DNA of 63,426 bases, filler included. It is 8 parts of 8 records of this genome, joined end to end, with 100 filler letters (N's around TTAATTAATTAA, not from the genome) between each part and the next. Parts side by side here need not be neighbours in the genome. Positions count along the whole stretch, not along the records: positions 47,320 to 63,426 come from SRR31156797_37118; 7 more parts are not named here. The stretch is one strand, 5' to 3'. The notes beneath the pieces are model-generated. The model was not told the origin of the DNA and ran no database searches. It saw only the letters and a list, made by a program, of their open reading frames with translations. This document shows, one piece after another, positions 8,616 to 61,941 of this stretch (positions are counted from its first letter, which is position 1; every line of letters begins with the position of its first letter). Made by a program: the position numbers and the translations under genes.

Positions 8616-8775
8616 GCTTTCCTCCTGTATCTGTTCTGATAAACAGACTTGATTTGTATTCGAGCGATTTGTCATCATCAGGACCGCAATCCGGTCGAGA
8701 TATATTGATATTTTTCAAAAGCCAATTTTGTTTCCTCCCAACAGCATCTTTATGATGCTTCGACAGATTGTTATG

Positions 8776-39583: not shown

Positions 39584-39683
39584 NNNNNNNNNNNNNNNNN
39601 NNNNNNNNNNNNNNNNNNNNNNNNNNNTTAATTAATTAANNNNNNNNNNNNNNNNNNNNNNNNNNNNNNNNNNNNNNNNNNNN
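39584..39683. other. Artificial contig spacer
   Basis: 44 N + TTAATTAATTAA + 44 N. Confidence 0.99.
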
Positions 39684-43363: not shown

Positions 43364-44557
43364 TTGATTTGCTCAATACTGGATAATGATCTTTATAAGT
43401 TGACAATGCAGATGGCAGTCCTTGAGCTATTTCCACAGGCAACTGCAGAGTACCGATTTACCAATAGAGGTGAGCAGCGGTTTACAGAGTGTTTTGCAGA
43501 AGAACTTAGAAGGATCATTAGTGAGGATATACCAAGACTGATGCTTACAGAGGATGAATATATATGGCTCAGGGAGGAGTGTCCTTACTTTAAACCAAGT
43601 TACGTTGAGTATCTTAAAAATTACCGTTTTGACCCGTCAGAAGTAACTGTAGCTCTGACCAGTGATTTTGACCTTGATATTTCAATAAAGGGTCCCTGGC
43701 ACAGCAGTATTCTATGGGAAATTGTTCTTATGGCTATAATTTCAGAGCTCTATTTTGATATGGTAGAAACAAAATGGAAAGAAGAAGATGAATATGACGA
43801 TCTTCTTAATGAATACGAAAAGCTCATGGTAAACATTGCCAAAGAGCTTGAAAATAATGATTGTGTTTTTTCTGAATTTGGAACACGCAGAAGACGAAGT
43901 TTTGAAATTCATGAGCTGGTTGTTAGAAAACTTCACAAATGCAAGACTTTTTCCGGTACCAGTAATGTTTATCTTGCAAAAAAATATGCTCTCAGAGCAA
44001 ACGGAACTATTGGACATGAATGGATAATGGGTAATTCTGCCCTTATGGGACTACGCAATGCCAACCTTTTTGCACTGGAGAACTGGACTGATGTATACAA
44101 AGGAAACCTTGGGATCGCACTTTCCGATACTTTTGGTTCAGAGCCATTTTTCAGAAACTTTAACCTCAAGTTATCCAAGTTATACGATGGTGTTCGCCAT
44201 GACAGCGGTGATCCACTCAAATTTGCAAGCAGAGTCATAGAACACTACGAGAAAATGGGTATCAATCCACTGACCAAGGTCATAATATTCAGCGATTCTC
44301 TCTCTGCTACAGATGCTATCCGTATAAAGAAAGAATGCGAAGGAAAGATCAATTGTATTTTTGGCATTGGCACAAGCCTTACAAATAATCATGGTTTTTT
44401 CAGGTCAAGTCCACCTCTTAATATGGTAATAAAGCTTCACAGTATAGATGAAATACCAGTTGTCAAACTGAGTGATGATGCAGGAAAAGAAACTGGTGAT
44501 AAGGATGCTATCAGAGTAGCAAATTATATATTTAATAGAAAAGGACTTGATAAATAA
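43364..44557 (+). CDS. pncB: Nicotinate phosphoribosyltransferase
   Basis: [49 protein letters not shown]. Confidence 0.95.
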
Positions 44558-44873
44558 ACGTAAGTTCTCAAATCACATTAAATAACTGAGATATAAGGCC
44601 AAGCGATACCATTAGCAATATGTACAACAACATAACAACAAATCCTCTTTTAATCTCAACATAAGTGCTTTGCTTCATGACATTGTCCCATACAAAGATA
44701 TGGAATACTTACTATATATACTTTCTGAAATAATGTGGTGTTTAAAATTAATATTTTTATTGTACGGTCTATTTTTAATACAGTTATGGTCAAGAAAAGA
44801 CATTCATGTCCATTTTGTATATTTGAAAAACAAGAAAACAACTGAAAAAACAATAGAATATTTGATGAAAAAT

Positions 44874-45047
44874 AATTTTTCAACAAACAAGGATTACCTG
44901 ACAAACACAAAGAAGTTCGTTTTTAGGGCAAAATGCAGAACAAGTATTGTCTGTGAGTAGACAATGTCCGAGGGGATTGGATATTATCGGATTTCTGCAT
45001 TTTGCACCTTACCGTTTTTCCGTTTTTAGCATGTTTGTTGAACAATT
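44874..45047 (-). ncRNA. Candidate ~175-nt structured archaeal ncRNA (alternatively a MITE-like element)
   Basis: Nested inverted repeats 44874-44889/45032-45047 (15/16), 44928-44940/44993-45005 (13/13), 44946-44952/44959-44965, 44967-44971/44987-44991. TATA-like TTTATATA on minus strand at 45066-45073. Confidence 0.5.
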
Positions 45048-45217
45048 AATAGTACTTTTTTATACTATATAAATATATCTTGATTTTCATAAATCATCAT
45101 GATGATGGAAACTGAACATTATAACGTCATAAAAGCACACTGAAAACAGAAAATCAAAGAAGTAGATTAAATAAAAAATAGATGAAAGGAATGAATCTTT
45201 AGTTCATTCCTGTCTTT

Positions 45218-46810
45218 TTACTTATTTCTTCGTATTATTAACAATGACATGAAGATTGCAACTGCAAACAAATAAGCAGCATTTTCATGTCCGGCATTCT
45301 TTGCATCCTCATCTGCACCCATCACATCAGCCACAGTATCTATTGTCTCTTCAATGACATCTGTTACTTCTTCAACAGGTATCGCTGCTTCATCAATTTC
45401 ATCTGTGACCTCATCAACAACACTAAAGCTAGTATTTGTAGCATCTTCTGCTGTGAATTCTACACTTCCTTCAAAGAAATAATTAATTTCACTTTCATTC
45501 ATTGCGTAACTATATATCCTTACTTCATCTATACAACCATCAAAGTATTTTCCGAATGATGGGTTAGAACCAATATTTGTAAAATTCCAGCCAGTCCCTA
45601 TCACACCTTCTTCCTCATAGAGATTTCCATCCACATATAGCTTCACTGTGCCTGCATCCTGATCATAGACCGCTGCTAAAAATGTCCAATTACCTACTGA
45701 AACCGGATGATAGCCTAAAACATCTTCTGTACCACTGAAAGCTGACCAACCAGTACCGCCTCCACGCTGATCAATATTTATCGTACGATCGTATCCGCCA
45801 TTGTCATGAGAAATGACAGTTGTTCGCAATTCATCATTAGATTTTGCCCAGGCAATTAAGGTTGCCTGTGGCATCACATCAGGATTTAAATTAACCGGCA
45901 CCTGAACATAATCACTTGTACCGTTAAATTCCAATGCTTCGTCCATTATTCCTGAGACAAAAGTGGCACCATAGTTTGTTCCATTGTTCCCGTTACCAGA
46001 GTCGTCTGCTATGTCTCCGTTAAATGGATAATACGCCACAAGTCCCTGTTCAGAACTTGCTGCACTACTGGCAGTTGTAGTGGTAGAAGTTGATGTCATG
46101 TTTTCTTCAGTTTGAGCGATTTGGACTTCTATTTCTCCTTCTAAAAGGGAGTTTAGCTCAGTCTGATTCAATTCATGATCATATATCCTTACATCATCTA
46201 TTTTACCCAGAAAATGAGCGTCAAAAGATGGATTTGAACCAATATGAATATAATCTCTGCCAACTTTGTGGGTGCCTTCACCTTCATATGTAGTACCATC
46301 CACATATAACTTTACTTTACCTGAATCCTGATCATAGATTACTGCCAGGAAAGTCCAGTTTCCAGTTGAAACCGGGTGATATCCTAATACACCTTCAGAA
46401 CCACTAAAAGCTGACCAACCAGTGCCTCCACCACGCTGATCTATATTAATTGTACGATCATATCCACCATTATCATGAGAAATTACCGTTCCTCGTGAAT
46501 CACGATCAGATTGGGCCCAAAGAGTCATAGTTACCTGTGGCAATACATCCGGGTTTATGTCCAGCGGTATATAAACATAATCACTTGATCCATTAAAATT
46601 CAATGCTTCACCACTTATTCCTGTGACAAAGGTAGCACCATTATTTGTTCCATCGTTTCCATTTCCAGAATAATCTGCTGTGTCACCATCGAACGGGTAG
46701 TAGGCTATAAGTCCCTCTTCAAGACTTGCAGATGCAAATGATGAGGACATTACTATGAATAACAATCCAACAATCAGTATACTAAAGTACCTAATATATC
46801 CAAATTTCAT
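45218..46810 (-). CDS. Surface protein with two LamG-like jellyroll domains and C-terminal TM anchor
   Basis: Signal peptide. Two copies of GL.AYYPF.G...D.SG.GN.G and F.G.ID.VRIY. Thr/Ser linker, C-terminal hydrophobic helix + RRNK. Confidence 0.88.
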   Translation of the reverse strand: MKFGYIRYFSILIVGLLFIVMSSSFASASLEEGLIAYYPFDGDTADYSGNGNDGTNNGATFVTGISGEALNFNGSSDYVYIPLDINPDVLPQVTMTLWAQSDRDSRGTVISHDNGGYDRTINIDQRGGGTGWSAFSGSEGVLGYHPVSTGNWTFLAVIYDQDSGKVKLYVDGTTYEGEGTHKVGRDYIHIGSNPSFDAHFLGKIDDVRIYDHELNQTELNSLLEGEIEVQIAQTEENMTSTSTTTTASSAASSEQGLVAYYPFNGDIADDSGNGNNGTNYGATFVSGIMDEALEFNGTSDYVQVPVNLNPDVMPQATLIAWAKSNDELRTTVISHDNGGYDRTINIDQRGGGTGWSAFSGTEDVLGYHPVSVGNWTFLAAVYDQDAGTVKLYVDGNLYEEEGVIGTGWNFTNIGSNPSFGKYFDGCIDEVRIYSYAMNESEINYFFEGSVEFTAEDATNTSFSVVDEVTDEIDEAAIPVEEVTDVIEETIDTVADVMGADEDAKNAGHENAAYLFAVAIFMSLLIIRRNK

Positions 46811-47219
46811 TTTACTTACCCTCTTATTTTTATACATTTTTTTTAATCAGAAACACTAATTAATGAAGTTGTGAAGAAGAAATATTCAGAAATCACAGAT
46901 GTACTAACATTCTGCTATAAATTCCACAAAACTAAAGCATAGAATGACCAAGGTCAATTGAACATGTTTGTTTATAATTTCCCACAATTCATCTAAGAGT
47001 CTAATAATTTCTTTAAAAAACGCATGAAAAATTAATATATAAATTTATCGAAATAAGTATTGAAATAATTATATTTTAGTTAGTTCAGATAAAATCCTCA
47101 CAAAAGTGAGAATGAAAAATTTCAGACTTATGTTTGTTTTCCACATCATTTATTTATCAATACTAATTCATAGTCGGAAATTAACTTCTTAGATGATAAT
47201 ATTTATATGTTGTTATAGC

Positions 47220-47319
47220 NNNNNNNNNNNNNNNNNNNNNNNNNNNNNNNNNNNNNNNNNNNNTTAATTAATTAANNNNNNNNNNNNNNNNNNNNNNNNN
47301 NNNNNNNNNNNNNNNNNNN
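47220..47319. other. Artificial contig spacer
   Basis: 44 N + TTAATTAATTAA + 44 N. Confidence 0.99.
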
Positions 47320-50300
47320 CGGGCCTTGAAATAAACGTACTTGTCCGAGGGGCCGTCGAAGCTGGTCTCCTGTGTGCCCTCGTCGATGATCTCCAGGGGC
47401 CCGCCGGCCTTCACCGTTACCGTAGCCGTTCCGCCCTGCTCGAAGTGGGAGAAAACGTTGACGGGGAGCAGGATCTCCTCCTCGGGGCCCAGCACCCGGG
47501 GAAGGGTGCCCAGAACCATAAGATCCGTTCGGACGGGCACCGTCTTTTCTGTGTGACCGTAGGCGGAAGCCGAGGCGGCCACGGCCATGACCCTGACGGA
47601 ACCGACGTAGAGAGGCATCTCGAACTCGTGCTCCCCACTCTCTCCCTCTGCCAGCTCAAAGGGCCCGAAGTAGCGGACCACCGGTTTGAAGCGGCTCGCC
47701 TTCTTGGGCGGCTCGGGATCGGCGCCCTCACCACCGCCTATGGATAAGAGGGTTCCGAAATCTCCGGCCCTCGAGGCGATCAGGTCGTCATAGATATCCC
47801 AGGTTCTCACCCCCAGGGTCTCCTTCGCGAAGAAATCTGACCAGGGGTCGGGGGTCTTGAAGTTCGTCAGGTCCAATAGGCCGTCGTCCACGACCGCCAG
47901 GGTATAGGCCATGGGGCGGCCCTGCTTTTCGGATATGGTTATAGACACCTGTCCCTGGGGTTCGTACTGGGGGGCCGTTTTGATCACAGGTTCCAGCCTG
48001 GTGGCGGGATCGGTGACATTCAGGGGAATGATCCCGTACATCCTGACGGGCAGGTCGTTGGAGCTCCTCTCGTAGGGCTGTACGTAGCTGGCATGAACAT
48101 AGACCGTGGGCGCCATCGCCGCCTCTACGGGAAACTCGATCCTGGTCTGCTCGCTCAGGGAGGGCACCCACCAGGAGTTGATGACACCCGTCCCGTCTTC
48201 CAGGCTGACGAGTATCCTGCCCCCTTCCTCGCTGGGAATCGTTATGACCGCCTGTTCCCCCGTATTGTATTCCTCCTTCTCCGCAAAGAAATTCAGTCTG
48301 GAGATCGAGCTCCCCCTCTGGGGGCTGCCCGCCCAGCCGGGCCAGTCGACATAGATGATCTTTCCCGTGGAGTGTCCGGATACGGGATCGATCACCCGCA
48401 CCAGGTATCGGCCCCATTCGGGGTAATCGATCCGGAAGGACCAGCTGCCCCTTCCCTCGCTTAGGCTGATCTTTTCTCTGGACAGGGCCCTTCTGTAGTT
48501 TCTGGAAACGAAGCGGGCCAGGTCCTCTTCGCTCCGGTCCCACCACCATTTCCAGTCCAGCTTGTACATCTCCACCTCAAGGGTCTTTCTGCCCGAGGGC
48601 CGGCCGTCCGCGTCCAGGCTGACGATCTCTATCTCATGATCCTGATCGGTCAGGAGCATGCCCCGGGTCGTGTCGCCCGCGGGGGGGCGGATACCCGCAT
48701 AGCTGTCGTAGGGGGAGAGGGTCATGAGGTTTCTCGTGATGCTGAAATCCCCTCCCTCTTCGAAGACCTTCGTTTGAAGGTCCACCGTCATGAATCCCGG
48801 GCTCTTCGCCTCGAAGGGAATGGGCAGGCGGATGTCCGCATGCCCGTTAGAGTCTATCCGGCCGGAGAACACGGTTTCCGACGGGGAGTAGAATTCCTTG
48901 CTGGGATCATCAAACTCAAAGGAGCCGTAGCCCTTGAAGCTCGTCTCATGGGCGGAGAGGATCATATCCGTTTCGGTTTTCAGATCCCTGGCGACGGCCC
49001 CGTGAAGCCATGTCACGTCCATGGGAATGCTGGTCAGTTCGGACCTGATCGCCTCGCCGGGTACATCCAGGGAGATCTTCAGTCTGTTAGGCTTTACCGT
49101 TTCCACCCTGAGAGCTTTTGAGAACGACGTCCCCCCCACGCTGATCCTCGCGTTCCAGAAACCAGTGGGCGCGTCATCGCCGGTGTCCGCGTCAAAGCGG
49201 TATATCCCGCCCGTAGAAGATGTGGAGACCATCCTCAGGACTCTCTTGTCTTCCGGATCGAAGAGCTCGAAGATGACCGGGTGCTCTTCGGGCAGGGTCT
49301 TCATCTCGTCCTGCAGGATGAAGCCGAGATGGATCGTATCGCCCGGCCGCCAAACGCCCCGCTCTCCGTATATAAAGCCCTTGAGCCCCTCTTTCACGGA
49401 GCCCCCTTCCACCTCGAAATCGCTCACCGACAAGGACGAACCGTTGTCCACCCGCATCCAGCTGCTCATCCCCCCGCTTGTGGCCTGAAGGGCGAAGGGC
49501 ACCCTCTTGGCGTTCAGGAAGAGGTATCCCGAGTTGTCGCTGACCCCCCTGGCGATCTCCTGCTGCTGGAAGTCGTACAGAACGACCTCCGCTCCGGCTA
49601 CCGCTTCGGAGGTATTGAGATCCGACACATAAACGGTCATGCCGCTGACATCCGATTTCTTGGCGATGACCCCCAGGTTGGAGCTCAGGAAGCTCACCTT
49701 GTCCGTCCGCCTGGCGTAGTAGGTATTGGAGCAGGGATTGTCTCTGTTCCTCCAGTCTGAGTAATAGTAGTTATCCCAGTTGCTACGATAGCTGGGGCCC
49801 GTCCACTCGGATTTGTTTAACGGCAGGTCGTCCTCTTCACTGTGATCGTGTTCGCAGGGATAGAGAGACTGGGAACGCCTGAAAGAGAGCCTGAGCTGAT
49901 AGAGGGCTCCCGGCTCCAGATCGACCCAGGGGGTCAGGTCGAGGTCGAATTTATTCTTGATATTCAGGTTGTCGATTCCCCGTCCTTCGAGGCTGACCGT
50001 TTTGAAGGCAACGGGGCGGCCGACCTTCTGGATATTGTACCCGCCCTTGATGTCGTTGTTGTCCTGCAGAAACTGGACCATGTTGTTTTCATACACCCTG
50101 ATGATCTCGATATCCACGGCCTTCAGGGAGATTGACTCAATGGGGATCAGCAGGCGTTCGCCCGAGGGGAGAATACCGCCCTCCGTTGTGAACCGGGCCA
50201 GGGGCTTTTGCTGCTCATGGGGAAGGGTGAAGGCGATCTCTCTTCCAAGGGGGACGCCGTCGGCGTTCTTTAATGAGGAGGAGATCATCAGCTTTTTGGC

Positions 50301-51200
50301 GGCGGTGTTTACACGCTCCGTATAGAGGATGATCCTGTTGTCTTTTATCTTGAGGTTCGTCATTTCCTCTCCGCCTATCCTGGCCAGGCCGGAGATCTCC
50401 TGCTTCGTATCCAGGGGCATGGAAAAGGAAAGCTCCACAGCCTTTACGGGGCTGAGGGTGTTTTTCCAGCTCATGAAGTCGAATCTGTTGAGGGCCGGAA
50501 TAGGGATCTCTTCCACTCCCTGCCGATCGACCCCGATGCTCTTTCCGTTCCACTCCAGCTGAAGCGCATAGGCCACTTCCTTCCTGGGGATCTCATGGAT
50601 GACAAAGCTGTGGCTGTCCTCCTTGTGGGACCATTGGATGGGGGCCGGCAGGGAGGGCGGGGCCAGCATCTCTTCGATGCCTTCGGCGTCGCTCAGGTCG
50701 GCCGTCTTGACCCGCCCGTATACGGACATGGTTTCGGAATCAAGGGCGTCAACCCGGTCAATGAGGACTTCAACGTCCTGAACGATGGTGGAGAAGGAGA
50801 AACTGAACTCCTCCTTTCCCGCCGGGACGTCGAGGACGTCGCCCAGCCTCAGGCTGGCCGTATAGAACTGACCGCTTGCCAGCCCCTTTTCCGGCACGAA
50901 CTCGATGACTCCGTCCTCCGAGAGAGTCGTCTTCCCTTTGACCGCGGGGTCAAGCTGTATGAGCTTCTGGACCTGCTGCTCGCCGAGCTCCTTGTCCGCT
51001 CCCTTTGCCAGTATGACGCTGATAGGGCTGTTCCGGCTGAGGATCCCCGCCGTATAGGAGGAAATCATCCCGGTATAGTCGGCGGGATTCGAGACCTCTA
51101 CCTCGTCTCTGGGAATGCCGGAGACCTTTTCCGTATCCCCTCGGGCTCCGCAGGAGAGCAGGAACAGGGCTGTTAACAGGAGGAGAGTCATTTTCTTCAT
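47320..51200 (-). CDS. Bacterial alpha-2-macroglobulin family lipoprotein, 3'-truncated
   Basis: MKKMTLLL...LLSC lipobox. YGERGVWRPGD (MG2), TLAVVDDGLLDLT.F.TPDP, IGGG, GSVRVMAVA, LPRVL.P. Confidence 0.9.
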
Positions 51201-51608
51201 ATGGGCATCCTTGCTTTGGGTTTTGAATAATGCATCATCCATGATGACGGTCGTAATCGGAATGACCTTTGGCTCATTTTTTAATCTTCGTTCCGTCCCT
51301 TGAGCCGCCATGGGCCGGGACGGTCTAGGGGATTCAAGTTCGAGGTCTTTGGTTATTGTATATCAGCTTATATTAAATGAACAGATATTGTCTTTAATCA
51401 ATTTGAAAGGAAGAATCATATTAATAGACAACAGAAGGAAGTATTATTAAAATCTGCCCTGGTATGAATTCTGTGGAGGGGGCCCCAGATCTTCCATGAT
51501 AGAATGTATAATCAATGGATGCTTATGATTTCATCACCTTTGTGTTATCATGTTTCATAGTCGTATTGAGCAAAGGATATAAGATGAGCGGAATGATCTG
51601 TGCCGATA

Positions 51609-51637
51609 TTGTCAAATCAGAATTCATGTACTATATT
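51609..51637 (+). promoter_or_regulatory. sigma70-type promoter upstream of RNA hairpin and abiF
   Basis: TTGTCA (51609-14), 17-bp spacer, TATATT (51632-37). Predicted start near 51644. Confidence 0.7.
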
Positions 51638-51643
51638 GTTAGT

Positions 51644-51697
51644 AACAGTACCCGTCACGCCTCTCACAGAAGCGGACCAGGACGGGTCTTCTCATTT
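51644..51697 (+). ncRNA. abiF-type RNA (putative antitoxin/leader RNA)
   Basis: GC-rich hairpin in AT-rich DNA: ACCCGTC(51650-56)/GACGGGT(51681-87) enclosing CGCcTCT-CAC-AGAaGCG and an asymmetric bulge, then a pyrimidine tail CTTCTCATTT, directly 5' of an Abi_2 gene. Confidence 0.7.
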
Positions 51698-51729
51698 ATA
51701 AGCCCTTTTCTTGAGGCAGCTTGTAAGCC

Positions 51730-52692
51730 ATGAAGTACGATTCACCTCCAACGACGATTGATCAGCAGATATCAATTCTGGAATCTCGTGGACTGGAAAT
51801 TACGAATGGAGAAGCTGCTTCTGTTTTTCTGAATAAAGTCAGTTATTATCGTTTTTGCGGATATGCACTGCATTTTGAACACTTTAAAGACAGAAAAAAA
51901 ACTCACAGATATAAAGAGGGAACCACGTTTGACCAGGTTATGGAGCTATACAGTTTCGATTCCAGGCTCAGAACACTGATTTTCGATGCTATTGAGAGTA
52001 TTGAGATCGCCTTTCGTACACAACTCTGTCTCCATTTTTCACAGCTTACTAAGGATTCTCATTGGCCATTGGATGCCGAGCACTTTCTACCAGGTTTTAA
52101 TCATGCGCGATTCGTTGAGGAGATAGAAAAAGAGACCGAGCGTAGTAGGGAAATCTTTATTGATAATTATAAGACGAAGTACAAGGACCCTCCTCTACCG
52201 GCTTCCTGGATGTTGATTGAGATTGTTTCATTTGGAACATGGTCACGAGTATTCAAATCGCTTAAGGATCAGGAAGCCAAAAAGGTCATTTCCCGTTTTT
52301 TTGCCCTCTCTCCCTTTATTCTGGAGTCCTGGATTCATTCGCTGACAGTTTTAAGAAATCTCTGTGCTCATCATGCCAGAATCTGGAATAAGTCGTTAAC
52401 TATTTCTCCAGCGCTTACGAAGTCTATGAAACGTATATATCGAAACCCTACTGAGAAGAAGAGAATCGGATTACAACTTGATATTATCTGTGAGCTTCTG
52501 AAACCTTTGGGAGAGTATGAGATTTTCATTGATAATCTAAACAGCTTGTTTGAAGATCATCCAGGAGTCCCTTATTCCTCAATGGGACTGAAAGATAATC
52601 ATATTGATAAAGAACGAGGTATTCGTGCCCGGCCTGATCGTGAAATTTTAGCTTCCCCGGTCGGATCAGATGACAGAGACAAAGACATTTGA
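51730..52692 (+). CDS. abiF: Abi_2 / AbiD-AbiF family HEPN ribonuclease (abortive infection toxin)
   Basis: P.TIDQQI..L..RGL, L..VSYYR..GY, LY.FD..LR......E.IEIAFRT, P.W...E..SFG.WS, HEPN RxxxxH in LRNLCAHHARIWN. Confidence 0.92.
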   Translation: MKYDSPPTTIDQQISILESRGLEITNGEAASVFLNKVSYYRFCGYALHFEHFKDRKKTHRYKEGTTFDQVMELYSFDSRLRTLIFDAIESIEIAFRTQLCLHFSQLTKDSHWPLDAEHFLPGFNHARFVEEIEKETERSREIFIDNYKTKYKDPPLPASWMLIEIVSFGTWSRVFKSLKDQEAKKVISRFFALSPFILESWIHSLTVLRNLCAHHARIWNKSLTISPALTKSMKRIYRNPTEKKRIGLQLDIICELLKPLGEYEIFIDNLNSLFEDHPGVPYSSMGLKDNHIDKERGIRARPDREILASPVGSDDRDKDI

Positions 52693-52830
52693 AGTATTGT
52701 ACCGGTACATTGTGGCTGTATAAAATCAGGAACCATCCCGGTGGTTTCTGACAGATTGGTAATGACATCTGACGGCTATGTGCTACAATGATCCCTCATA
52801 TACTTAATCCACCCTCCAAGGATCCTCTGC

Positions 52831-54381
52831 ATGACAATAAGCGAACTCAAAGAACATGAGCAAAATTTTATCATGAAACTGGCCGAGCAATGCAAGCTGC
52901 ATCCAGACGATGCCTTCAAAGCGTTAATTGAGACAAGTGTTCGCTGCGCCTTTAAGGGTGATGTCAAAACGATTGTCGAGAATGGCTTTATCAAAGTGCT
53001 GGTGCTGTCGCCGGATTTTTTTAAGTACAAAGATTTTGACCTGATTGCGAAACTGCCGGAACTTGAGGAACTGTATCTCTCAGAAGGCCATCAGAAGAGC
53101 AAGGCGAACAGGGTCAGGAAAATACATATCGGGAAGGAGAGCAAAATCCACACAGTTTCCGTCTGTGCTTCGAAACTGAAAGACCTGGTCATTGAAAACG
53201 ACGGTGTAAAGGATCTGGAGATAGCGGCTCCGGAGCTCGCAACACTGGAGCTCTCCCACTGGGGGAGTCTCAAAAGGGTAGCCATTTCCGGTTTGAGTGA
53301 TATTGATTTGAAAGACTGCCCGATCCCATGGGATTCGTTAAGCGAGCTGGTCATAAAAAACCTGGATATAGATATACCCTTTCCCTTATTGAAGAATTGC
53401 ATCACCATCTCCATCTCGAATTATTACAACAGGGGAGTCGAGCACTTTAAAGGGAATAAGATCGCCTTTCAGTCGGATCGTCTGGAGAGCCTGAAGCTTT
53501 GGGAAACGGGAATCAGATCTTTGGATTTAAAGAGATGCGTCAATCTGAAAGAGATCGATATCACAGAGAAAGGCATCTCTAAATTCGATTTCTGTCCTGA
53601 TCATGTGGTTAAACTTGACATCTTCACAGATAAGAAAACTGTTAAGATCAGGAAGGTTAAGGAATGCCTTAAGCTGGAAGAGCTGAGAATGCGCCACGTT
53701 CCGGACATGAATGTGAAACTCGAGCTGCCCCATTTAAAGTACCTCAGCCTTTTCGACATGAATACGATCACTCTGGATACTGTGAAATGCGAAAGCCTGC
53801 AGCATCTGAAGCTTTACGATGGATCGGTGACCCACGTAAAGATGAAGAAAGGGGAGCTTTATCTGAATAACAGGGTGTCCAGATTGAAGGATATTGATAT
53901 TACCGAAAGCCTGATGCTTAACTGGTTCAGTTATTTTGCGGATCAGGTTAAGGGGATAAAGCTCATTTGCAGAGAGTCTCACCATCTTTTTCATAAATTC
54001 CTGAAAAAGGATTTCTCTGAGATCGAAGATGTAGAGTGCAGCGCTCAGGATCTTGAAGATTTGAGGAGGGGATACAACTGGGATTTCGGGAAGAAGCCTC
54101 TGTTCTGGATCGCCAATCACAAGAACTGCGATAAGGGGACGGCCTTGAAAATATACTGGGCCAACGGTCCTGGCTACTTTACGAAATACGAAAGCCCTTC
54201 GGATATCCCCCCTCATGAGCGGGAAGCCATCAAACTGAAACAGGACATCGAGAAACTCTATCTGTCGGGTTATTATAAAACGGCGAACTATGCTTTCGAT
54301 CCCCATCATGAACACACGGGATACTATGAAGATGTTCAGAACCTGGATAGGCTGCCGCCCGAGATGCTGGAACCAGTATAG
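52831..54381 (+). CDS. Leucine-rich-repeat-like protein with C-terminal DUF4274-like domain
   Basis: Repeats LPELEELYL, LESLKL, CVNLKEIDI, CLKLEELRM, LPHLKYLSL, CESLQHLKL. C-terminal YNWDFG..PL.WI....CDKGTAL.IYW. Confidence 0.7.
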   Translation: MTISELKEHEQNFIMKLAEQCKLHPDDAFKALIETSVRCAFKGDVKTIVENGFIKVLVLSPDFFKYKDFDLIAKLPELEELYLSEGHQKSKANRVRKIHIGKESKIHTVSVCASKLKDLVIENDGVKDLEIAAPELATLELSHWGSLKRVAISGLSDIDLKDCPIPWDSLSELVIKNLDIDIPFPLLKNCITISISNYYNRGVEHFKGNKIAFQSDRLESLKLWETGIRSLDLKRCVNLKEIDITEKGISKFDFCPDHVVKLDIFTDKKTVKIRKVKECLKLEELRMRHVPDMNVKLELPHLKYLSLFDMNTITLDTVKCESLQHLKLYDGSVTHVKMKKGELYLNNRVSRLKDIDITESLMLNWFSYFADQVKGIKLICRESHHLFHKFLKKDFSEIEDVECSAQDLEDLRRGYNWDFGKKPLFWIANHKNCDKGTALKIYWANGPGYFTKYESPSDIPPHEREAIKLKQDIEKLYLSGYYKTANYAFDPHHEHTGYYEDVQNLDRLPPEMLEPV

Positions 54382-54694
54382 AAAACAAGAGGGGCAGACT
54401 TTGCTCAGTCCATGGATCATCCCGCAATAGACCCCCCTGCGGATTTTGAACCAACCTCAGAACTGAGGGACGGGCTGAGCGATCCAGTTCATCCGCCTCC
54501 GTTCCATTGACAAGGCCTTCTCCCGCGACGCGGAAGGGCAGGGATTTGCCCTGTCATCTCCATCGTCGATTCCCATCATGGCGCTGATCACGGCGGTGCT
54601 TTCTCTGTACGGAATTTGGCTGAATTGCTAATATTGCTGTGGATGCTGTAACTTTAATTAATAAAGACATATTTAACTTGTGAAATTTAATCAA

Positions 54695-54716
54695 CAAATG
54701 TAATATCATATGTAAT
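54695..54716. promoter_or_regulatory. Putative SorC-family operator, site 1
   Basis: CAAATGTAAT-AT-CATATGTAAT upstream of the regulator. Confidence 0.6.
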
Positions 54717-54732
54717 CCTTAAGGAGATTAAT

Positions 54733-55698
54733 GTGGAAAGTCATAGTGAAGTATTGAAGCTGGTCGAGGTTGCCAGAATGTACTATGAACAGGAATTGAC
54801 TCAGTCAGAAATTGCTAAAAAGCTGGGGGTTTCCAGGCCCCTGGTCAGTAAAATGCTGCAGAGATGCAAGGATCTGGGAATTGTAAATATTGAAATCAAA
54901 TCCCCTTTGGAAGGTAATGAAGGCTTACTGAATAAGATGAAGATGAAGTTCGATTTAATTGACGGATTAATAGTACCCGCCAATCGAAACAACCTTGATC
55001 TTTCAATGAAAAACCTTCTTTCCCAGGCGGCTCTCTATCTGGAACGTCGCCTTTCCGACCAGGTGAGCATCGGCTTAGGATGGGGGAGTTCCCTGGCGGG
55101 GATCGTCGATGCTTTCAATGCGGGCGAGCTGAATACGGAGCGGGCTATTACGGTCTGTCCCCTCATCGGCGCCATGACCTCTCCGTCCAAGGGATTCCAC
55201 CCTAACGAACTGGCCCGCAGATTCGCCGAGAAGATACAGGGGGAGGCGACCTATCTCCATGCTCCGGCGTTTCCGGGCAACAAGAAAAACTATGAGGTTT
55301 TTCAGCAGACCGACGAATATAAATACCTCAACTCCCTCTGGCAGAGATTGGATACGGCCATCGTTTCCATCGGGACCTATCCTTCGGTTCCCGATCAGGC
55401 CACGGCGCTCCGCTTCGGCAAGGCCCTGAAGGAGAACCATGCCGTGGGGATGCTGCTTTCCTATTTTTACGATGTCAACGGAAACATCATCGAGGGGGAA
55501 AATGACAATGTCATTCGGATCCCGCTGGAATGCATTCGCAAGGTGAGGAAGGTTGTTCTTGTCTGCTCGGGCAATACCCGGGCCAACTCCATATTAGGGG
55601 CCTTGAAAACCGGTCTGGTGACCCATCTGGTCACTGATGATCTGGCAGCCAAAAGCGTATTGGAATTGGAAAGCGAGCTAAGTATTAGGCAAATGTAA
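54733..55698 (+). CDS. SorC/DeoR(LsrR)-family sugar-binding transcriptional regulator
   Basis: VARMYY...TQSEIA..LGVSR..VS..L, IGLGWG, GAL..G.V..LVTD. GTG start after AAGGAG. Confidence 0.93.
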   Translation: MESHSEVLKLVEVARMYYEQELTQSEIAKKLGVSRPLVSKMLQRCKDLGIVNIEIKSPLEGNEGLLNKMKMKFDLIDGLIVPANRNNLDLSMKNLLSQAALYLERRLSDQVSIGLGWGSSLAGIVDAFNAGELNTERAITVCPLIGAMTSPSKGFHPNELARRFAEKIQGEATYLHAPAFPGNKKNYEVFQQTDEYKYLNSLWQRLDTAIVSIGTYPSVPDQATALRFGKALKENHAVGMLLSYFYDVNGNIIEGENDNVIRIPLECIRKVRKVVLVCSGNTRANSILGALKTGLVTHLVTDDLAAKSVLELESELSIRQM

Positions 55699-55734
55699 TA
55701 CAAAATTGACAATTGTAATGCCATATGTTATCTT
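55690..55734 (+). promoter_or_regulatory. sigma70 promoter with overlapping operator site 2
   Basis: TTGACA (55706-11), 17 bp, TG-n-TATCTT (55729-34). CAATTGTAAT-GC-CATATGTTAT spans the spacer. Confidence 0.65.
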
Positions 55735-55770
55735 TTTCCTCCGGTCACCAATTTATTATTTCGGAGGAAG

Positions 55771-56406
55771 ATGATGAAAATGATTGACTATAAGGTGTTG
55801 AATTCTATGCTATTGACCGCGGCTGACGATGTCATAGCAAAGAAAGACTATCTCTCGGAGCTGGATGCGGTCATTGGAGATGGAGACCACGGGACTACGA
55901 TTTCCCGGGCCATGGAGATCCTGAAGGAATCTGTGGAAAAGGGGCCTGAAGATGATCTTAAGCTGTTGTTGAAGAATATCGGATGGGCTCTGCTAGGTGT
56001 CAACGGGGGGGCTACGGGTCCTCTGCTCGGTTCGTTATTCAAGGGACTGTCCGACGGGCTTGAGACCGGGGCTTCGGTGGATGCCGCTGCCGTGGCGTCC
56101 ATGTTCGCCAGATCCCGGGAGGCTGTTCTGAAAGTCTCCGGAGCCAGTCTGGGGGACAAGACCATGATCGATGCCTTCCTGCCGGCTGTGGAGGCTATCG
56201 AAGAGTCGGCGGGAGGAGCCGATCTTATAGCTATGTTTGAAGCCGCGGCCGAGGCGGCGGAAAAGGGTGCGGACAGCACTGTGGATATGGTGGCCAGAAA
56301 AGGACGGGCGAAGAATCTTCAGGATAAATCCAGAGGACACAGAGATGCCGGGGCCAGCTCCATGTCTTTGATTTTCAGAGGTTTCGAAAAAGGAATAAAA
56401 ATGTAA
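55771..56406 (+). CDS. dhaL: Dihydroxyacetone-kinase family L subunit (Dak2)
   Basis: LD..IGDGDHG, GGATGPL.G, GDKTMID, ARKGRA, DAGA.S. Confidence 0.9.
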   Translation: MMKMIDYKVLNSMLLTAADDVIAKKDYLSELDAVIGDGDHGTTISRAMEILKESVEKGPEDDLKLLLKNIGWALLGVNGGATGPLLGSLFKGLSDGLETGASVDAAAVASMFARSREAVLKVSGASLGDKTMIDAFLPAVEAIEESAGGADLIAMFEAAAEAAEKGADSTVDMVARKGRAKNLQDKSRGHRDAGASSMSLIFRGFEKGIKM

Positions 56407-56428
56407 TTAACAAAAAAGGGGGATGTTA

Positions 56429-57433
56429 ATGAAAATGAAGAAGTTTCTCAATGATCCTGATAATGTCGTCAGGGAGTTGCTTGAGGGGCTCTATTATTCG
56501 AATATGGATAAACTGGACCTGCTGCCGAACAACCTGGTTGTGAGCAAGCATATGGGGGATCGGAAGAGGGTTCATATCGTGACGCTCGGGGGGACCGGCC
56601 ATGAGCCGGGGCTCTCCGGGTTTGTCGGCCTGGGCATGATTGACGTTTGCGCTCCCGGCGATATTTTTGCCGCTCCCGGACCTGATCTATGCTTTCAGGC
56701 TATCTCGATGGCCCACGAAGCGTCAAAGGGGGCGGGGGTTCTTCTGATCGTCCTTAATCATTCCGGCGATATGATGACAGCCGACCTGGCGATGGAGATG
56801 GTTGAGGCAGAGGGGCTGAAGGTTCAAAAAATCGTCACCAAAGACGATGTTTCCGTCATCGGTCAGCAGCGCGAGGAGCGCAGGGGGCTTGTCGGCTGCG
56901 TCCCTCTCTATAAGATCTGCGGTGCTGCCGCAGCCGACGGTAAATCGCTTGACGAGGTCTCAAGGGTCGCTGAAAAGTTTGTCAGTAATCTGGCGACCGT
57001 TACCGTCGCGTCCCGCGGCGCCACCCATCCTCAGACGGGAGCCAGCATCGCCGTTTTCGCGGATGACGAGATGGAGATCGGCATGGGACAGCATGGAGAA
57101 GACAGCGGGCAGCGCATGAGGCTCAAGACGGCGGATGAAACGGCCGAGATCCTTTTGGCCAGGCTGCTGGAGCATATATCATTCGATCCCGGAGAAAAGG
57201 CCCTTGTTCTGCTCAGCGGATCAGGCTCTACGACCCTGATGGAGCTGCTCATCGTGTTCAGGCATGTGCATGCCCTCCTTGAAGAGAGGGGGGTCGGCGT
57301 CGGCGCGCAATGGATCGGCGAAATCATGACGGTACAGGAAGCGGCCGGGTTTCAGCTCTGTGTGGCGGCTATGGACGATGAGCTCCTCGGTTACTGGAAT
57401 ATGAAATGCATAACCCCTTACTACCGGGGTTAA
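56429..57433 (+). CDS. dhaK: Dihydroxyacetone-kinase family K subunit (Dak1), paralog 1
   Basis: GGTGHEP..GFVG.GM, G.IFAAP, NH.GD, RRG..G, MEIGMGQHGE. Confidence 0.85.
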   Translation: MKMKKFLNDPDNVVRELLEGLYYSNMDKLDLLPNNLVVSKHMGDRKRVHIVTLGGTGHEPGLSGFVGLGMIDVCAPGDIFAAPGPDLCFQAISMAHEASKGAGVLLIVLNHSGDMMTADLAMEMVEAEGLKVQKIVTKDDVSVIGQQREERRGLVGCVPLYKICGAAAADGKSLDEVSRVAEKFVSNLATVTVASRGATHPQTGASIAVFADDEMEIGMGQHGEDSGQRMRLKTADETAEILLARLLEHISFDPGEKALVLLSGSGSTTLMELLIVFRHVHALLEERGVGVGAQWIGEIMTVQEAAGFQLCVAAMDDELLGYWNMKCITPYYRG

Positions 57434-57516
57434 AAAAGTAGGTAGCCCCTTCTCTTAGGAAAATTCTTTTCTGACCATTATCCTTCCAAAGCAAAATTAT
57501 ATTCTCTGAAAAATAA

Positions 57517-57538
57517 CATATGTAATATCAAATGTTAA
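57517..57538. promoter_or_regulatory. Putative SorC-family operator, site 3
   Basis: CATATGTAAT-AT-CAAATGTTAA, just upstream of TTGACA (57556-61). Confidence 0.6.
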
Positions 57539-57768
57539 AAAATCAGAAATAAAGCTTGACAGTTAGCATTTTTCGGCTAAAGAATATAACTGCAAAGTTT
57601 AAAGAAGAAGAGATTGGGATGAAACTTGTGTCAGTTTTCTTGGTCTTTTCTGCTTTGATCCCTATTGATATCTGCCGGCGGGAACCATGCGGGTTCAGGT
57701 TCCGGGGATGCCGTTGGTGAGCGGTAATTTAATAAACCCAAAGCGGATCGTTTTGCAGGAGGAATGAA

Positions 57769-58632
57769 ATGATTAAATACGGAATGCAGATGTACATGCT
57801 GACGGATTCATTCGGTGAAGACAAGCTGGATCTTATCAAAAAAGCCGGCGACCTGGGCTTTGACGGCGTTGAGATTTCATTCGGCGAACCGGCTGATTTC
57901 CCGGCGGCGGCTGTAAAGAAGGCATTGGCCGAAAACGGCATGGAGATCAATTTCGCCATAGGGCTCGGTCCCGATACGAACAGCATCTCTCCCGATGCGG
58001 AAGTCAGGAAGGCCGGTGTGGAGCTTCTGAAAAGAGCTGTCGATACGGCCTGTGAGGTGACCGGCGGCGGCTGTGTGATCGGCGGTCCGAACTTTGCCGC
58101 ATGGCTCTATCTGACCGGCAAGTCTCCTTCTGAAGATGAGTGGAAATGGGGTGTCGAGAATTACAGACAGGTCTGCGAGTATGCGGCTTCAAAGGATATT
58201 TTTATCGCCGCCGAGGTGCTGAACCGATTCGAAACCCACCTTTTCAACACCCTGGCGGACGCCTACCGCTTCTGCGGCGATGTGGGCCTGGGTAACGCTC
58301 TTGTCCAGCCTGACACCTATCATATGAACCAGGAAGAAAAATCATGGGGCGATTCGATTCGAGCCGCAGGCGACAGGATCAAGTACATGCATGTCATCGA
58401 ATCCGACCGCGGAATAATCGGTACGGGCCTGGTTAACTGGCCGGAAGTCTTTACGGCTTTGAAAGATATCAGCTTTGACGGATGGCTGACGGTCGAAGGG
58501 TTTACGAGGGATTCCGAGGTCGTCGCCGGCCTGACGAAGATCTGGCGTGATCCTGCGGAAAGCGCGGAAGAGTTAGCGTCCGCCAGCCTTTCGGCTCTGA
58601 AAGCTTACGAGAAAGATTATTTCGCGCAATAA
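57769..58632 (+). CDS. Ketose 3-epimerase (D-psicose/D-tagatose 3-epimerase family)
   Basis: GFDGVEI, EVLNRFET, DTYHMN.EE, H..ESDRG..G.G, EGF. Confidence 0.85.
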   Translation: MIKYGMQMYMLTDSFGEDKLDLIKKAGDLGFDGVEISFGEPADFPAAAVKKALAENGMEINFAIGLGPDTNSISPDAEVRKAGVELLKRAVDTACEVTGGGCVIGGPNFAAWLYLTGKSPSEDEWKWGVENYRQVCEYAASKDIFIAAEVLNRFETHLFNTLADAYRFCGDVGLGNALVQPDTYHMNQEEKSWGDSIRAAGDRIKYMHVIESDRGIIGTGLVNWPEVFTALKDISFDGWLTVEGFTRDSEVVAGLTKIWRDPAESAEELASASLSALKAYEKDYFAQ

Positions 58633-58651
58633 GTTCAAAAGGAGAAATGGA

Positions 58652-59665
58652 ATGGGAATGAAAAAATTCATAAATAATCCGAAGGATCTCACGCAAGAGC
58701 TACTTGAAGGCCTCGCCCTTGCGAATCCCTCAAGACTGACCCTTTCAGAGAGCAAGCTTGTGGTAAGCGCAAGCCTGGGCGACAGGAAGCGCGTTCACAT
58801 CGTCACCCTCGGCGGCACGGGGCATGAACCCGCCATCAGCGGATTCGTAGGCCCCGGAATGATCGATATCAGCGTCCCCGGCGATATCTTCGCCGCGCCC
58901 GGACCTCCCGCATGTATAGAAGCGCTCAAGATGGCCAATGAGGCGTCCCAGGGCGCAGGCGTTCTTTTCGTCGTCCTCAACCATGCCGGTGACATGATGA
59001 CCGGTAATATGACCATGGAGATGGCCGAGGACATGGGGATCAAGGTGAAGAAGATCGTTACCCAGGAAGATATCTCCAACGCCGCCCGTGAAAACTGGGA
59101 CGACCGACGGGGGCTCGTAGGCTGTGTCCCCCTCTACAAGATAGCCGCCGCGGCCGCGCTGGAAGGCAAGAGCCTTGATGAAGTCTGCGCTGTCGCTCAG
59201 AGATTCAATGAAAACATGGCTACCCTGGCAGTCGCTCTTCGCGGCGCGACCCATCCCCAGACCGGCGATGCCATTTCGGTACTCGGCGAAGACGAGATGG
59301 AGATCGGGATGGGCCAGCACGGCGAGGGCGGCGGCGGACGGCAGAAGGTCAAAAGCGCCGACGAGACGACTGAAATCATGAGCAAGGCCCTCGTGGACGA
59401 CCTTTCGCTCAAGAGCGGCGATAAGCTGATGGTCGTTATCAACGGTTCGGGAGCCACTACGGGAATGGAGATGCTGATCTGTTTCCGTAAGGCCTATAAG
59501 TATCTCGAGTCACTGGGCATCGAAGTTGTTGCGTCCTGGGTCGATGAAATCCTGACCGTACAGGAAACCGCCGGCTTCCAGCTCTTCTTCGGGAAGATGG
59601 ATGATGAGCTTCTTGGGTACTGGAACGCTCCCTGTGATTCACCCTATCTGAGGGTTATTCAATAA
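58652..59665 (+). CDS. dhaK: Dihydroxyacetone-kinase family K subunit (Dak1), paralog 2
   Basis: GGTGHEP, GDIFAAP, NHAGD, RRGLVG, GMGQHGEGG. Confidence 0.88.
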   Translation: MGMKKFINNPKDLTQELLEGLALANPSRLTLSESKLVVSASLGDRKRVHIVTLGGTGHEPAISGFVGPGMIDISVPGDIFAAPGPPACIEALKMANEASQGAGVLFVVLNHAGDMMTGNMTMEMAEDMGIKVKKIVTQEDISNAARENWDDRRGLVGCVPLYKIAAAAALEGKSLDEVCAVAQRFNENMATLAVALRGATHPQTGDAISVLGEDEMEIGMGQHGEGGGGRQKVKSADETTEIMSKALVDDLSLKSGDKLMVVINGSGATTGMEMLICFRKAYKYLESLGIEVVASWVDEILTVQETAGFQLFFGKMDDELLGYWNAPCDSPYLRVIQ

Positions 59666-59795
59666 GGGGACGTGAGTCTTAATCTTTTTAATATAAAGGA
59701 TTGTTTTTTTAATGTGTAAGATTGGTGACCGAGCTTGGACAGTCCTGATGGCTGTTTTCATTCCCGGTTACAGATCGAGATAATTGGAGGAAGTT

Positions 59796-60851
59796 ATGAA
59801 AAAGATGTTGATGCTGATGGTTTCTCTGCTGACGATTTCAGCGGGAATGGTATTCGCAAACGGACAGCAGGACGCGGCGGCCGCAGACGCAAGCGGTAAG
59901 AAAGTCGTCAAGATGGGCCTCGCCATGCAGAGCAAACAGGCTCCCGCCTTCCATGCATGGGAAGATTACCTTTACGCGAGGGTTCAGCTTGAAGCTGAAG
60001 AGCGCGGCTATGTCGTCGAGTGGACCGCCACCAACGCCAGTGATGACGCCACAAAGCAGGCGAATGACATAAAAGACCTTCTGGCCAAGGGCTGCGAAGT
60101 CATCTTTGCTCCCTGTGTGGACTCCCAGGCCATCCTGCAGTCTGTTGAAGAGGTTCACAAAGCGGGCGCCCTGTACATTTCCTACTGCCGCGCCGTGTCG
60201 CCGGATGCCAAGGGCGCTCAGATTCCCGACGTTACCGTTAACTTCAGTTCAGAAGAACAGGCTTATGTCGGCGTTATGAAAATGTTCGAGATCATGGAAG
60301 CCGACGGAATCGTGCCCACCACTATGATAGACGTTCACGGTCAGGTTATCGATGAAAACGCCACTAACAGGGAAAGAGGCCTGAGAAGGGCCCTCGTAGA
60401 CGCCGGTTACCCCGATCTGGAAGTCGTCGTTTGCGACAGCGGCGCGTGGGAACCCGACGTCGCCCGGGACAGCGTGGACGCAGCCCTTCAGGCGCACCCC
60501 GAAGCCAACTGCCTGTACACGTCCTCAGACTTCATGATGCCCGGCATTCAGACGGCACTTGAAAACCATGAGAAATGGTACCCCCGCAACGAAGAAGGCC
60601 ACGTATACCTGGCCTCATCTGATATCTTCCCCATTGCCATTGAAATGCTGCAGGCCGGATACATCGATACCGCAGTCGACCAGGGTTGTTTCATGTTTGC
60701 CGTTAACGCAGCCAAATCGGCTTTCGATCTGCTGGAAGGTAAAACTGTGGAAAAAGAACAGCTCACTCTGGGAACAATGGCCACCAATGAAGATATCGAT
60801 GACATCCTGGCCGATGATTCTGTCTTCCTGTGGGGTTGGGACTACAGATAG
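59796..60851 (+). CDS. Sugar ABC transporter substrate-binding protein (RbsB-like)
   Basis: Spirochaete-style signal MKKML...VFANGQQD. KQ.NDI.DLL..G, R..G, VDQ. Confidence 0.88.
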   Translation: MKKMLMLMVSLLTISAGMVFANGQQDAAAADASGKKVVKMGLAMQSKQAPAFHAWEDYLYARVQLEAEERGYVVEWTATNASDDATKQANDIKDLLAKGCEVIFAPCVDSQAILQSVEEVHKAGALYISYCRAVSPDAKGAQIPDVTVNFSSEEQAYVGVMKMFEIMEADGIVPTTMIDVHGQVIDENATNRERGLRRALVDAGYPDLEVVVCDSGAWEPDVARDSVDAALQAHPEANCLYTSSDFMMPGIQTALENHEKWYPRNEEGHVYLASSDIFPIAIEMLQAGYIDTAVDQGCFMFAVNAAKSAFDLLEGKTVEKEQLTLGTMATNEDIDDILADDSVFLWGWDYR

Positions 60852-60896
60852 TAAGACATCGGGCATTGTATTTGCAATTTAATAAACTGCAGAATC

Positions 60897-60928
60897 GGGG
60901 CGGGGTTGTTCTAACCTCGCCTTGTTTT
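60897..60928 (+). terminator. Intercistronic stem-loop after SBP gene
   Basis: GGGGCGGGGTT-GTTCT-AACCTCGCCTT then GTTTT. Confidence 0.65.
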
Positions 60929-60961
60929 GAAATCGTTTAAAAATGTATAAAGAGGGGGAGA

Positions 60962-61933: not shown

Positions 61934-61941
61934 GGGAAATT

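Follow-up and report, generated by a model that had tools for sequence, protein, structure and literature searches.

A putative AbiF/AbiFr toxin-antitoxin module with a divergent abiF-class leader hairpin

INTRODUCTION

Do a promoter-like site, a short hairpin and an Abi_2 gene that follow one another on the same strand form a module in which an RNA restrains a ribonuclease (RNase)? The question is raised by a locus at 51609-52692 in a stretch of 63,426 nucleotides (nt), hereafter the window, which joins eight parts of eight records of one genome; positions 47,320 to 63,426 come from SRR31156797_37118. An initial annotation made from the letters alone had marked a TTGTCA-17-TATATT promoter-like site, a hairpin and an Abi_2 gene with an intact R-N-L-C-A-H motif. 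It had read them as an RNA-antitoxin/HEPN-toxin module of the AbiF kind.

AbiF is described as a bacteriostatic HEPN RNase that forms a homodimer, in which each monomer binds one upstream noncoding RNA (ncRNA) that blocks the active site, and it acts as a type III-like toxin-antitoxin system (PMC12373285, PMC12737573, PMC13064643). It has also been proposed as an ancestor of Cas13 (PMC12737573, PMC13064643). The initial annotation had pointed to both an RNA-inhibited HEPN toxin and the link to Cas13 ancestry, and these reports do carry them. The reference pair is PbAbiF-AbiFr from a Prevotellaceae bacterium (PDB 8VZ6; Zilberzwige-Tal et al., Cell 2025, as cited in PMC12373285, PMC12737573 and PMC13064643).

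Here we find all of the marked elements in place, and an abiF-motif hairpin together with homology to PbAbiF bears out the proposed kind of module. We consider it highly probable that the locus is a functional single-gene AbiF/AbiFr module, a type III-like toxin-antitoxin/abortive-infection system. At the level of sequence, the window holds all the parts of the single-motif, PbAbiF-like form.

RESULTS

The gene encodes a full-length homologue of PbAbiF

The candidate toxin is the product of an intact open reading frame (ORF) of 320 amino acids (aa; coordinates of all features are given in Table 1). It matches Pfam Abi_2 (PF07751) over profile positions 2-184 of 184 at 185.7 bits (cut-off 25.6; E 1.3e-54) and the AbiD profile of PADLOC at 236.8 bits (E 9e-71). 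The only real match in a sequence search of the PDB was 8vz6_A (“Abi family protein”; E 8.2e-49), with residues 3-286 aligned to positions 7-288 of 300. We then considered the predicted fold. An AlphaFold2 model built with 19 sequences has a mean predicted local distance difference test (pLDDT) score of 91.1, and a Foldseek search of the PDB with this model returned the same chain, there described as “PbAbiF dimer bound to ncRNA”, as the only match at E <= 0.001 (E 1.5e-18; template-modelling scores 0.79/0.84; root mean square deviation 2.7 A over 294 columns; 33% identity). The Rx4H motif of the HEPN domain aligns with R210 and H215 of PbAbiF, and R209, N210, C212, A213, H214 and H215 are invariant in the alignment of 19 sequences. 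PbAbiF carrying both R210A and H215A is inactive, as PMC12373285 reports with reference to Zilberzwige-Tal et al. Taken together, these matches support the assignment of the protein as a full-length PbAbiF homologue with its catalytic residues in place.

The homologue is a divergent one. Its closest proteins in a collection of 5.8 billion are at most 62% identical to it, and the closest named relative is an Abi family protein of Oceanispirochaeta sp. (60% identity). This relative is the sole basis for calling the locus spirochaete-like, as had been done at the outset; the housekeeping-type gene that we used as a check, an aminotransferase at 7263-8678, gave no clear taxon, its best named matches being at most 69% identical and coming from Desulfobacterota-type and Spirochaetes metagenome-assembled genomes. 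The last 19 residues, 302-320, are missing from all 18 aligned relatives and lie outside the part aligned to 8VZ6. Their pLDDT is below 50 and they are predicted to be disordered; we see no reason to assign this tail a function.

The leader carries an abiF-class hairpin that covaries across homologous loci

Immediately upstream of the gene, ACCCGTC (51650-51656) pairs with GACGGGT (51681-51687) to form an outer stem, and CGC (51658-51660) pairs with GCG (51672-51674) to form an inner stem. The hairpin loop has 11 nt and starts with CUCUC, and the 3' bulge is GACCAG (51675-51680). To place this hairpin among its relatives we gathered 134 homologous loci, 54 from the genome_contigs set and 80 from the metagenome_contigs set, whose proteins are 27-46% identical, and we described their leaders with covariance models. 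The first and narrowest, R1, was built from six Bacteroidales-type hairpins; R2 was built from a 40-row alignment in which the window is one of the training rows; and R3 was built from an alignment, A5, of 78 leader hairpins from which the window was excluded. One of the 78 rows is a minus-strand palindromic echo in locus L099. With filters off and both strands of the whole window searched, R3 matched 51648-51690 along model positions 1-46 with 40.9 bits (E 1.2e-9), with the caveat that A5 had been collected with R2, whose training rows included the window. The next-best R3 match in the window scored 11.8 bits (E 0.44). All 10 pairs of the model form in the window hairpin, and at 51655/51682 a U-A pair stands where 75 of 78 relatives have C-G, a compensatory change. 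We therefore assign the hairpin to the abiF class of RNAs as a genuine member, the sole one in the 63-kb window. The early description of a single RNA unit with neither an array nor a cas gene likewise holds: R3 gave this one match, repeat searches at the locus found no tandem or direct repeats and no CRISPR array, and no Cas core protein was found among the 48 ORFs scanned with PADLOC.

We observed the same element in front of most homologous genes. R1 already recovered diverse hairpins at other loci, all of them on the gene strand and just upstream, and when Rfam's own threshold is applied, 12 of the first 20 loci have an abiF motif shortly before the gene. R2 gives a plus-strand match in 111 of 134 loci (112 of 135 sources when the window is counted), with an estimated 7-64 nt between its end and the gene start. 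Among the 23 sources that lack an R2 match, six have 38 nt or less of upstream DNA, 12 have a variant hairpin recognizable by eye and five have none. In the 40-row alignment, the window hairpin is typical of a large subclass with inner stem CGC/GCG and bulge CACCNN; Bacteroidales-type leaders have inner stem AGC/GCU and bulge CAAAUN.

The pairing is supported by covariation. Counted in alignments that were fitted to a model, and are to that extent biased towards structure, 97.3% of cells in the 78-row alignment form standard pairs, compared with 83.8% in shuffles. Nine of the 10 pairs have changed on both sides, in 96 cells, and none of 500 shuffles reaches any of these measures. When the 3' partners are slid by 1-3 columns, pairing falls to 30-56% (at most 55.6%), and the 40-row alignment gives the same picture. 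The margin is large despite the fitting of the alignments. Covariation among homologous leaders, to which the initial annotation had pointed as a telling sign, is therefore strong.

The 12 loci with a variant hairpin (L002, L007, L030, L069, L071, L080, L086, L097, L103, L110, L111 and L132) share several traits. Their hairpins sit about 30-90 nt upstream of the abiF match and escape both the Rfam threshold and the R-models; most have a longer outer stem (e.g., GCUUACCC/GGGUAAGC) and a loop starting with CGCUUCCC, followed by a run of U. Existing abiF models thus miss a whole subclass. Separately, locus L126 has two abiF-type hairpins (148-192 and 1198-1240), one before and one after its abiF gene (211-1065). 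This suggests tandem abiF modules, which are noted for some genomes in PMC12373285.

A predicted promoter stands in register with the family

We next considered how the leader is positioned relative to transcription signals. When 106 distinct leaders of homologous loci are aligned on the first paired base of the hairpin, 82% have T at -12 and 87% have A at -5, and TTG-like letters occur at -41 to -39. The T at -12 looks like the final base of a -10 box in these sequences, and the A at -5 is a likely start site. In the same numbering, the window has its -35 hexamer at -41 to -36, its -10 hexamer at -18 to -13 and A's at -5 (51645) and -6 (51644); the final T of its -10 hexamer precedes the hairpin's first paired base by 13 nt, where the family mode is 12 nt. 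The window promoter is credible because it is in register with these family signals, not because of its match to the consensus. It is one promoter-like site 12 nt ahead of the hairpin, and the scan shows none in the interval from hairpin to ATG. The arrangement that emerges is a putative antitoxin RNA directly upstream of the toxin gene under one predicted promoter.

TABLE 1 Positions in the window of the predicted elements of the abiF locus
Feature	Position	Strand	Basis or description
-35-like hexamer TTGTCA	51609-51614	+	consensus scan; 10/12 matches jointly with the -10 hexamer
-10-like hexamer TATATT	51632-51637	+	17-nt spacer from the -35 hexamer
predicted transcription start (two A's)	51644-51645	+	placed 7-8 nt past the -10 hexamer
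abiF-type (AbiFr-like) hairpin	51650-51687	+	7-bp outer stem, 3-bp inner stem, CUCUC loop, 6-nt 3' bulge
G at first 3'-bulge position	51675	+	alignment A5, column 80
pyrimidine/U-rich tail CUUCUCAUUUAUA	51688-51700	+	directly 3' of the outer stem
predicted Shine-Dalgarno-pairing hairpin	51695-51727	+	minimum-energy fold; pairs GAGG 51713-51716
abiF gene, Abi_2/AbiD-F HEPN RNase (toxin), 320 aa	51730-52692	+	intact ORF; profile and fold matches
HEPN Rx4H motif R209-N-L-C-A-H214	52354-52371	+	aligned with PbAbiF R210 and H215
C-terminal tail, residues 302-320 (19 residues)	52633-52689	+	missing from all 18 aligned relatives

The leader is unchanged in related strains

Related strains offer a further view of the locus. 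In run X2, labelled as a coral metagenome, contigs span 49500-56500 with the same gene order and roughly 97-99% identity. X2 record 8 (50887-51867) differs from the window by 26 substitutions, 21 of them in 50887-51513, none in 51514-51717 and five in 51718-51867, and it lacks 4 nt at 51431. If the 204 nt of 51514-51717 had diverged like the flanks, at about 3.4%, they should hold roughly seven differences. Short contigs of low depth that bear the leader in X3 and X4, coral metagenome runs from other studies, have the same differences at 51718, 51720 and 51728. The promoter and hairpin, and also the tail, are unchanged in X2 record 8, X3 record 15 and X4 record 18. Within abiF itself at least 14 differences are listed against the related strain, nine of them synonymous and five not; these counts are among the differences listed for X2, beyond which there are 35 more.

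The unchanged tract in X2 begins at 51514, about 95 nt upstream of the -35 hexamer, and the 243 nt before it hold 14 substitutions and the 4-nt deletion. The unchanged tract thus includes 51514-51608, and a 72-codon ORF that starts at 51515 is without protein-level conservation.

Chance is an insufficient explanation of the promoter and hairpin

Several observations, in this section and the next two, weigh against a functional module, as does the model fitting of the alignments noted above. At gathering thresholds, an Rfam scan of the whole window returned no matches. A permissive scan of 51450-51800 had abiF (RF03085; 51651-51687, plus strand) as its sole match. The Rfam abiF model, to which the initial annotation had looked as a check, thus matches over its full length (model positions 1-37 of 37), but its 29.2 bits (E 0.0021 over the 351 nt searched) fall short of the 37 bits set for gathering. 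The gathering threshold is an annotation cut-off, not a biological property; among loci L001-L020, 12 of the 18 that bear a hairpin according to the broader model reach it and six miss it. R1 gives the window hairpin only 18.4 bits (E 0.058). The folding z-score of the hairpin is -1.9, with nine of 200 shuffles folding equally well, so that thermodynamic support for the hairpin alone is weak; its support comes from homology to relatives, not from folding energy. A promoter scan found seven promoter-like sites in 1.8 kb, compared with 4.1 +/- 1.8 in shuffles, and the promoter match by itself is within chance expectation.

One could therefore ask whether the promoter and hairpin are simply chance features of an AT-rich spacer before an Abi_2 gene, as the lack of promoter enrichment, the modest folding z-score and the sub-threshold Rfam match would allow. 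We give this reading next to no credence. As a matter of sequence comparison, it is effectively refuted by the R3 search, in which the hairpin stands far above the next-best match in 63 kb, and it is further opposed by the recurrence of the hairpin in this position at 111 of 134 loci, by a promoter and tail in the family register, and by the absence of any difference over 204 nt from a strain that is about 3% divergent around them.

The bulge and tail depart from the family

Although the hairpin belongs to the abiF class, one of its bulge positions is unusual. In column 80 of A5, the 77 plus-strand rows have C (62), T (9), A (5) or G (1), so that G51675 of the window stands against C or U in 71 of the 77 relatives. 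According to a review (PMC12737573), the RNase is inhibited by two bulge nucleotides of PbAbiFr, C32 and U38. If 51675 corresponds to C32, a putative equivalence on which this concern depends, the window RNA may bind or inhibit differently. The tail departs as well. Among the 106 leaders, 97% carry T at position +3 of the tail and 91% at position +8, and the window has four T's in its first eight nt where the family median is six. Its U-tract is interrupted, so that the hairpin may terminate transcription inefficiently; all that a terminator scan flagged was a weak terminator-like site of 5 bp at 51674-51689. Finally, the PADLOC scan of 48 ORFs revealed no defence island and, as said, no Cas core protein.

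These departures raise the possibility that the module is decaying or repurposed, with an RNA that inhibits poorly or an inactive protein, and is the remnant of a horizontally acquired islet. The G at a near-invariant bulge pyrimidine, the interrupted U-tract and the disordered 19-residue tail seen in no relative would fit such a history, as would a position outside any defence island and a GC content of 39-47% over 51500-54000, compared with 55-61% in 47500-51000. Nevertheless, the frame is intact, every residue that is invariant among the 19 sequences is kept, Rx4H included, and the model has a pLDDT of 91. Synonymous changes also outnumber the others among the listed differences from the related strain, and three further runs have the promoter, hairpin and tail without a change, against a difference of about 3% in the intergenic DNA around them. 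We therefore regard decay as very unlikely.

A second predicted hairpin may cover the Shine-Dalgarno sequence

The distance between hairpin and gene in the window also departs from that in its relatives. The spacer from the end of the stem to the ATG is 42 nt, compared with a median of 19 nt in 99 distinct leaders (range 5-233 nt, the largest values being probably start-codon mis-estimates). In the window, GAGG lies 13 nt before the ATG and is paired with P >= 0.97 in a 117-nt context. The weaker hairpin that the initial annotation had proposed as a possible occluder of the ribosome-binding site is indeed present in the minimum-energy fold and pairs GAGG, with -12 kcal/mol, but its z-score is only -1.92 (nine of 200 shuffles are equally good) and it is not a family feature. 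The differences seen in X2-X4 keep this hairpin, changing its energy from -12.0 to -9.6 kcal/mol, and C51720>U leaves a G-U pair; such survival is neither proof nor refutation. We take the hairpin to be a lineage-specific prediction, for which the folding energy is the sole support.

In many relatives, the start codon lies 5-13 nt past the abiF-type hairpin, within the U-rich tail (e.g., UUUUUUAUG), which leaves no room for a Shine-Dalgarno sequence. Where the start codon adjoins the hairpin in this way, RNA-bound AbiF would occupy the landing site of the ribosome.

This geometry bears on whether the hairpin is an antitoxin at all. It might instead work in cis only, as an attenuator in the 5' untranslated region or as a translational operator through which AbiF represses its own synthesis. 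The hairpin is 5'-terminal on the predicted mRNA with a U-rich tract next to it, the start codon is very close across the family (5 nt at the least, 19 nt at the median), often without room for a Shine-Dalgarno sequence, and the further hairpin in the window pairs GAGG. However, in the accounts of two studied homologues the RNA binds and neutralizes the protein, in C. difficile both in trans and in cis (PMC12373285), and PbAbiF is described with two RNA copies per dimer (PMC12373285; title of 8VZ6). Cis control and trans neutralization are also compatible with each other. An exclusively cis-acting hairpin is thus distinctly unlikely, and we retain the antitoxin as the preferred role.

The surroundings of the locus supply no conserved partner

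Upstream, on the opposite strand, lies a bacterial alpha-2-macroglobulin gene (47268-51311). The 3' end of this frame, at about 47268-47330, translates as X, reflecting a run of N in the window that stems either from a gap in the assembly or from masking. Downstream are a leucine-rich repeat (LRR)/DUF4274 gene (52831-54381), a gene for a SorC-type regulator and a dihydroxyacetone-kinase operon. The LRR/DUF4274 gene, on the plus strand, encodes 516 aa with leucine-rich repeats and a C-terminal DUF4274, shares the lower-GC stretch of abiF and comes with a separate promoter-like site at 52762-52789 (ATGACA-16-TACAAT with TG). The difference in GC content suggests, at the level of composition, an acquired two-gene islet. 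The window is strongly mosaic in composition, and 44000-47500, which adjoins the block of 55-61%, has 29-41% GC.

We considered two candidates for a protein partner and rejected both. The LRR/DUF4274 protein had no tblastn matches in the 134 loci and no PADLOC match. The small ORF at 51515-51733 (72 aa, with a stop that overlaps the abiF ATG) gave 38 tblastn rows at E <= 10 against the 134 loci, the best at 0.001. All 13 rows at E <= 0.1 start at residue 40 or later, bar one (7-61), and they map to the hairpin positions of those loci. The three differences of the related strains occupy codon positions 3, 2 and 1 of this ORF. We rejected it because its matches are the translated RNA motif, with no conserved protein upstream of the motif.

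Besides AbiD, PADLOC gave only generic matches at E <= 1e-5: mad3, mad8, an RtcR/PspF-like protein, AriA and a Csa3-like winged helix-turn-helix protein (E 4e-8). Among the flanking ORFs, those scans and the ones with Pfam turned up no neighbours of prophage type, no phage-protein library having been searched. Elsewhere in the window, an RND efflux permease frame (37843-39639, plus strand, 598 aa) aligns through residues 28-513 with positions 12-501 of profiles of about 1009-1050 positions, and it may be truncated or split.

DISCUSSION

How could the parts of this locus work together? In the mechanism that we favour, a sigma-70-type promoter would start a transcript at about 51644-51645, the first ~45 nt of which would fold as the abiF-type hairpin and run into the U/C-rich tail. 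Read-through of the same transcript would then yield the 320-aa HEPN RNase. By analogy with PbAbiF and AbiFCd, the protein may dimerize and take up one hairpin copy per monomer, and the bound hairpin would cover the Rx4H active site and keep a growth-arresting RNase silent. Given its 5'-terminal place, the U-rich tract behind it and its short distance from the start codon, the hairpin probably also limits expression of the toxin, via partial termination or processing. Partial termination, or processing by AbiF, could leave an excess of the short RNA over the full-length mRNA. The predicted hairpin that pairs the Shine-Dalgarno sequence may act as an extra, lineage-specific control. If the labile RNA were lost, for instance when a phage shuts off host transcription, the RNase would be freed. 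In this scheme RNA binding, the active-site block and toxicity are carried over from homologues.

We also considered a more elaborate version, in which the AbiFr leader is a two-part switch that couples neutralization and synthesis within an RNA of about 85 nt. The hairpin with its G bulge may touch the HEPN site differently, and the U-rich tail of the family would have been recruited as the 5' arm of the hairpin that hides the Shine-Dalgarno sequence; AbiF, by binding or cutting the leader, would then directly open or close its own translation. Such a coupled switch is not among the arrangements described for PbAbiF or AbiFCd in these reports, and we view it as a speculative and rather unlikely elaboration of the module.

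The locus adds a divergent AbiF/AbiFr pair to a known system, the mechanism and structure of which were published on relatives in 2025. Its local features are the bulge G, the longer spacer with a hairpin predicted to sequester the ribosome-binding site and the 19-residue tail predicted to be disordered. Its value lies in annotation: nothing in the collection searched exceeds 62% identity to the protein, which is about 33% identical to PbAbiF, the Rfam abiF threshold misses whole subclasses of antitoxin RNA, and the leaders allow a better description of the motif as a promoter, a 5-nt leader, a hairpin and a U-rich tail at fixed distances. The locus opens no new question, as RNA binding, the active-site block, toxicity and the Cas13 link are published for relatives.

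Comparison with known systems

One system to which the locus can be compared is CRISPR-Cas13 (type VI), with which it would share, by analogy, the HEPN RNase fold and regulation through a bound RNA. Unlike Cas13, the window protein has one Rx4H motif in 320 aa, with no array and no Cas core protein among the 48 ORFs, and Cas13 chains were not significant in the Foldseek search (E about 0.8-2.8). In ToxIN, AbiQ/antiQ and TenpIN, a single promoter likewise serves an RNA antitoxin and the endoribonuclease toxin encoded directly after it, and these systems have a role in abortive infection. Classical type III systems are described as having tandem RNA repeats that the toxin cuts, a terminator before the toxin and non-HEPN toxins (PMC12373285), whereas the window has a single hairpin, no repeats and a HEPN toxin. 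“Type III-like” is the apt label because there is a single unit without tandem repeats, as the papers describe for PbAbiF.

Within the AbiF family, AbiFCd-RCd22 of the Clostridioides difficile phi027 prophage has the same plan of an Abi_2 toxin gene with an upstream abiF-motif RNA. Its RNA is reported to be co-transcribed with the toxin gene from one promoter, to bind and neutralize the toxin, acting in cis and in trans, and to lower abiF expression (PMC12373285). RCd22 is described there as two abiF motifs 19 nt apart with a separate terminator, in a prophage lysis module; the window differs in having one motif and no clear separate terminator. The window leader agrees with RF03085 in both stems, the CUCU loop, the 3' bulge and the placement upstream of an Abi_2 gene.

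A further comparison is with PbAbiF itself, a likeness seen in sequence and predicted fold. The window protein is about 33% identical to it and has 19 extra C-terminal residues, and the window leader differs in its first-bulge G, its sub-threshold Rfam score and its 42-nt spacer with a predicted hairpin of its own; its inner stem CGC/GCG and bulge GACCAG also set it apart from Bacteroidales-type leaders. Otherwise the two have the same layout: a single-gene HEPN toxin of about 300 aa that aligns end to end, preceded directly on the same strand by one hairpin unit rather than an array.

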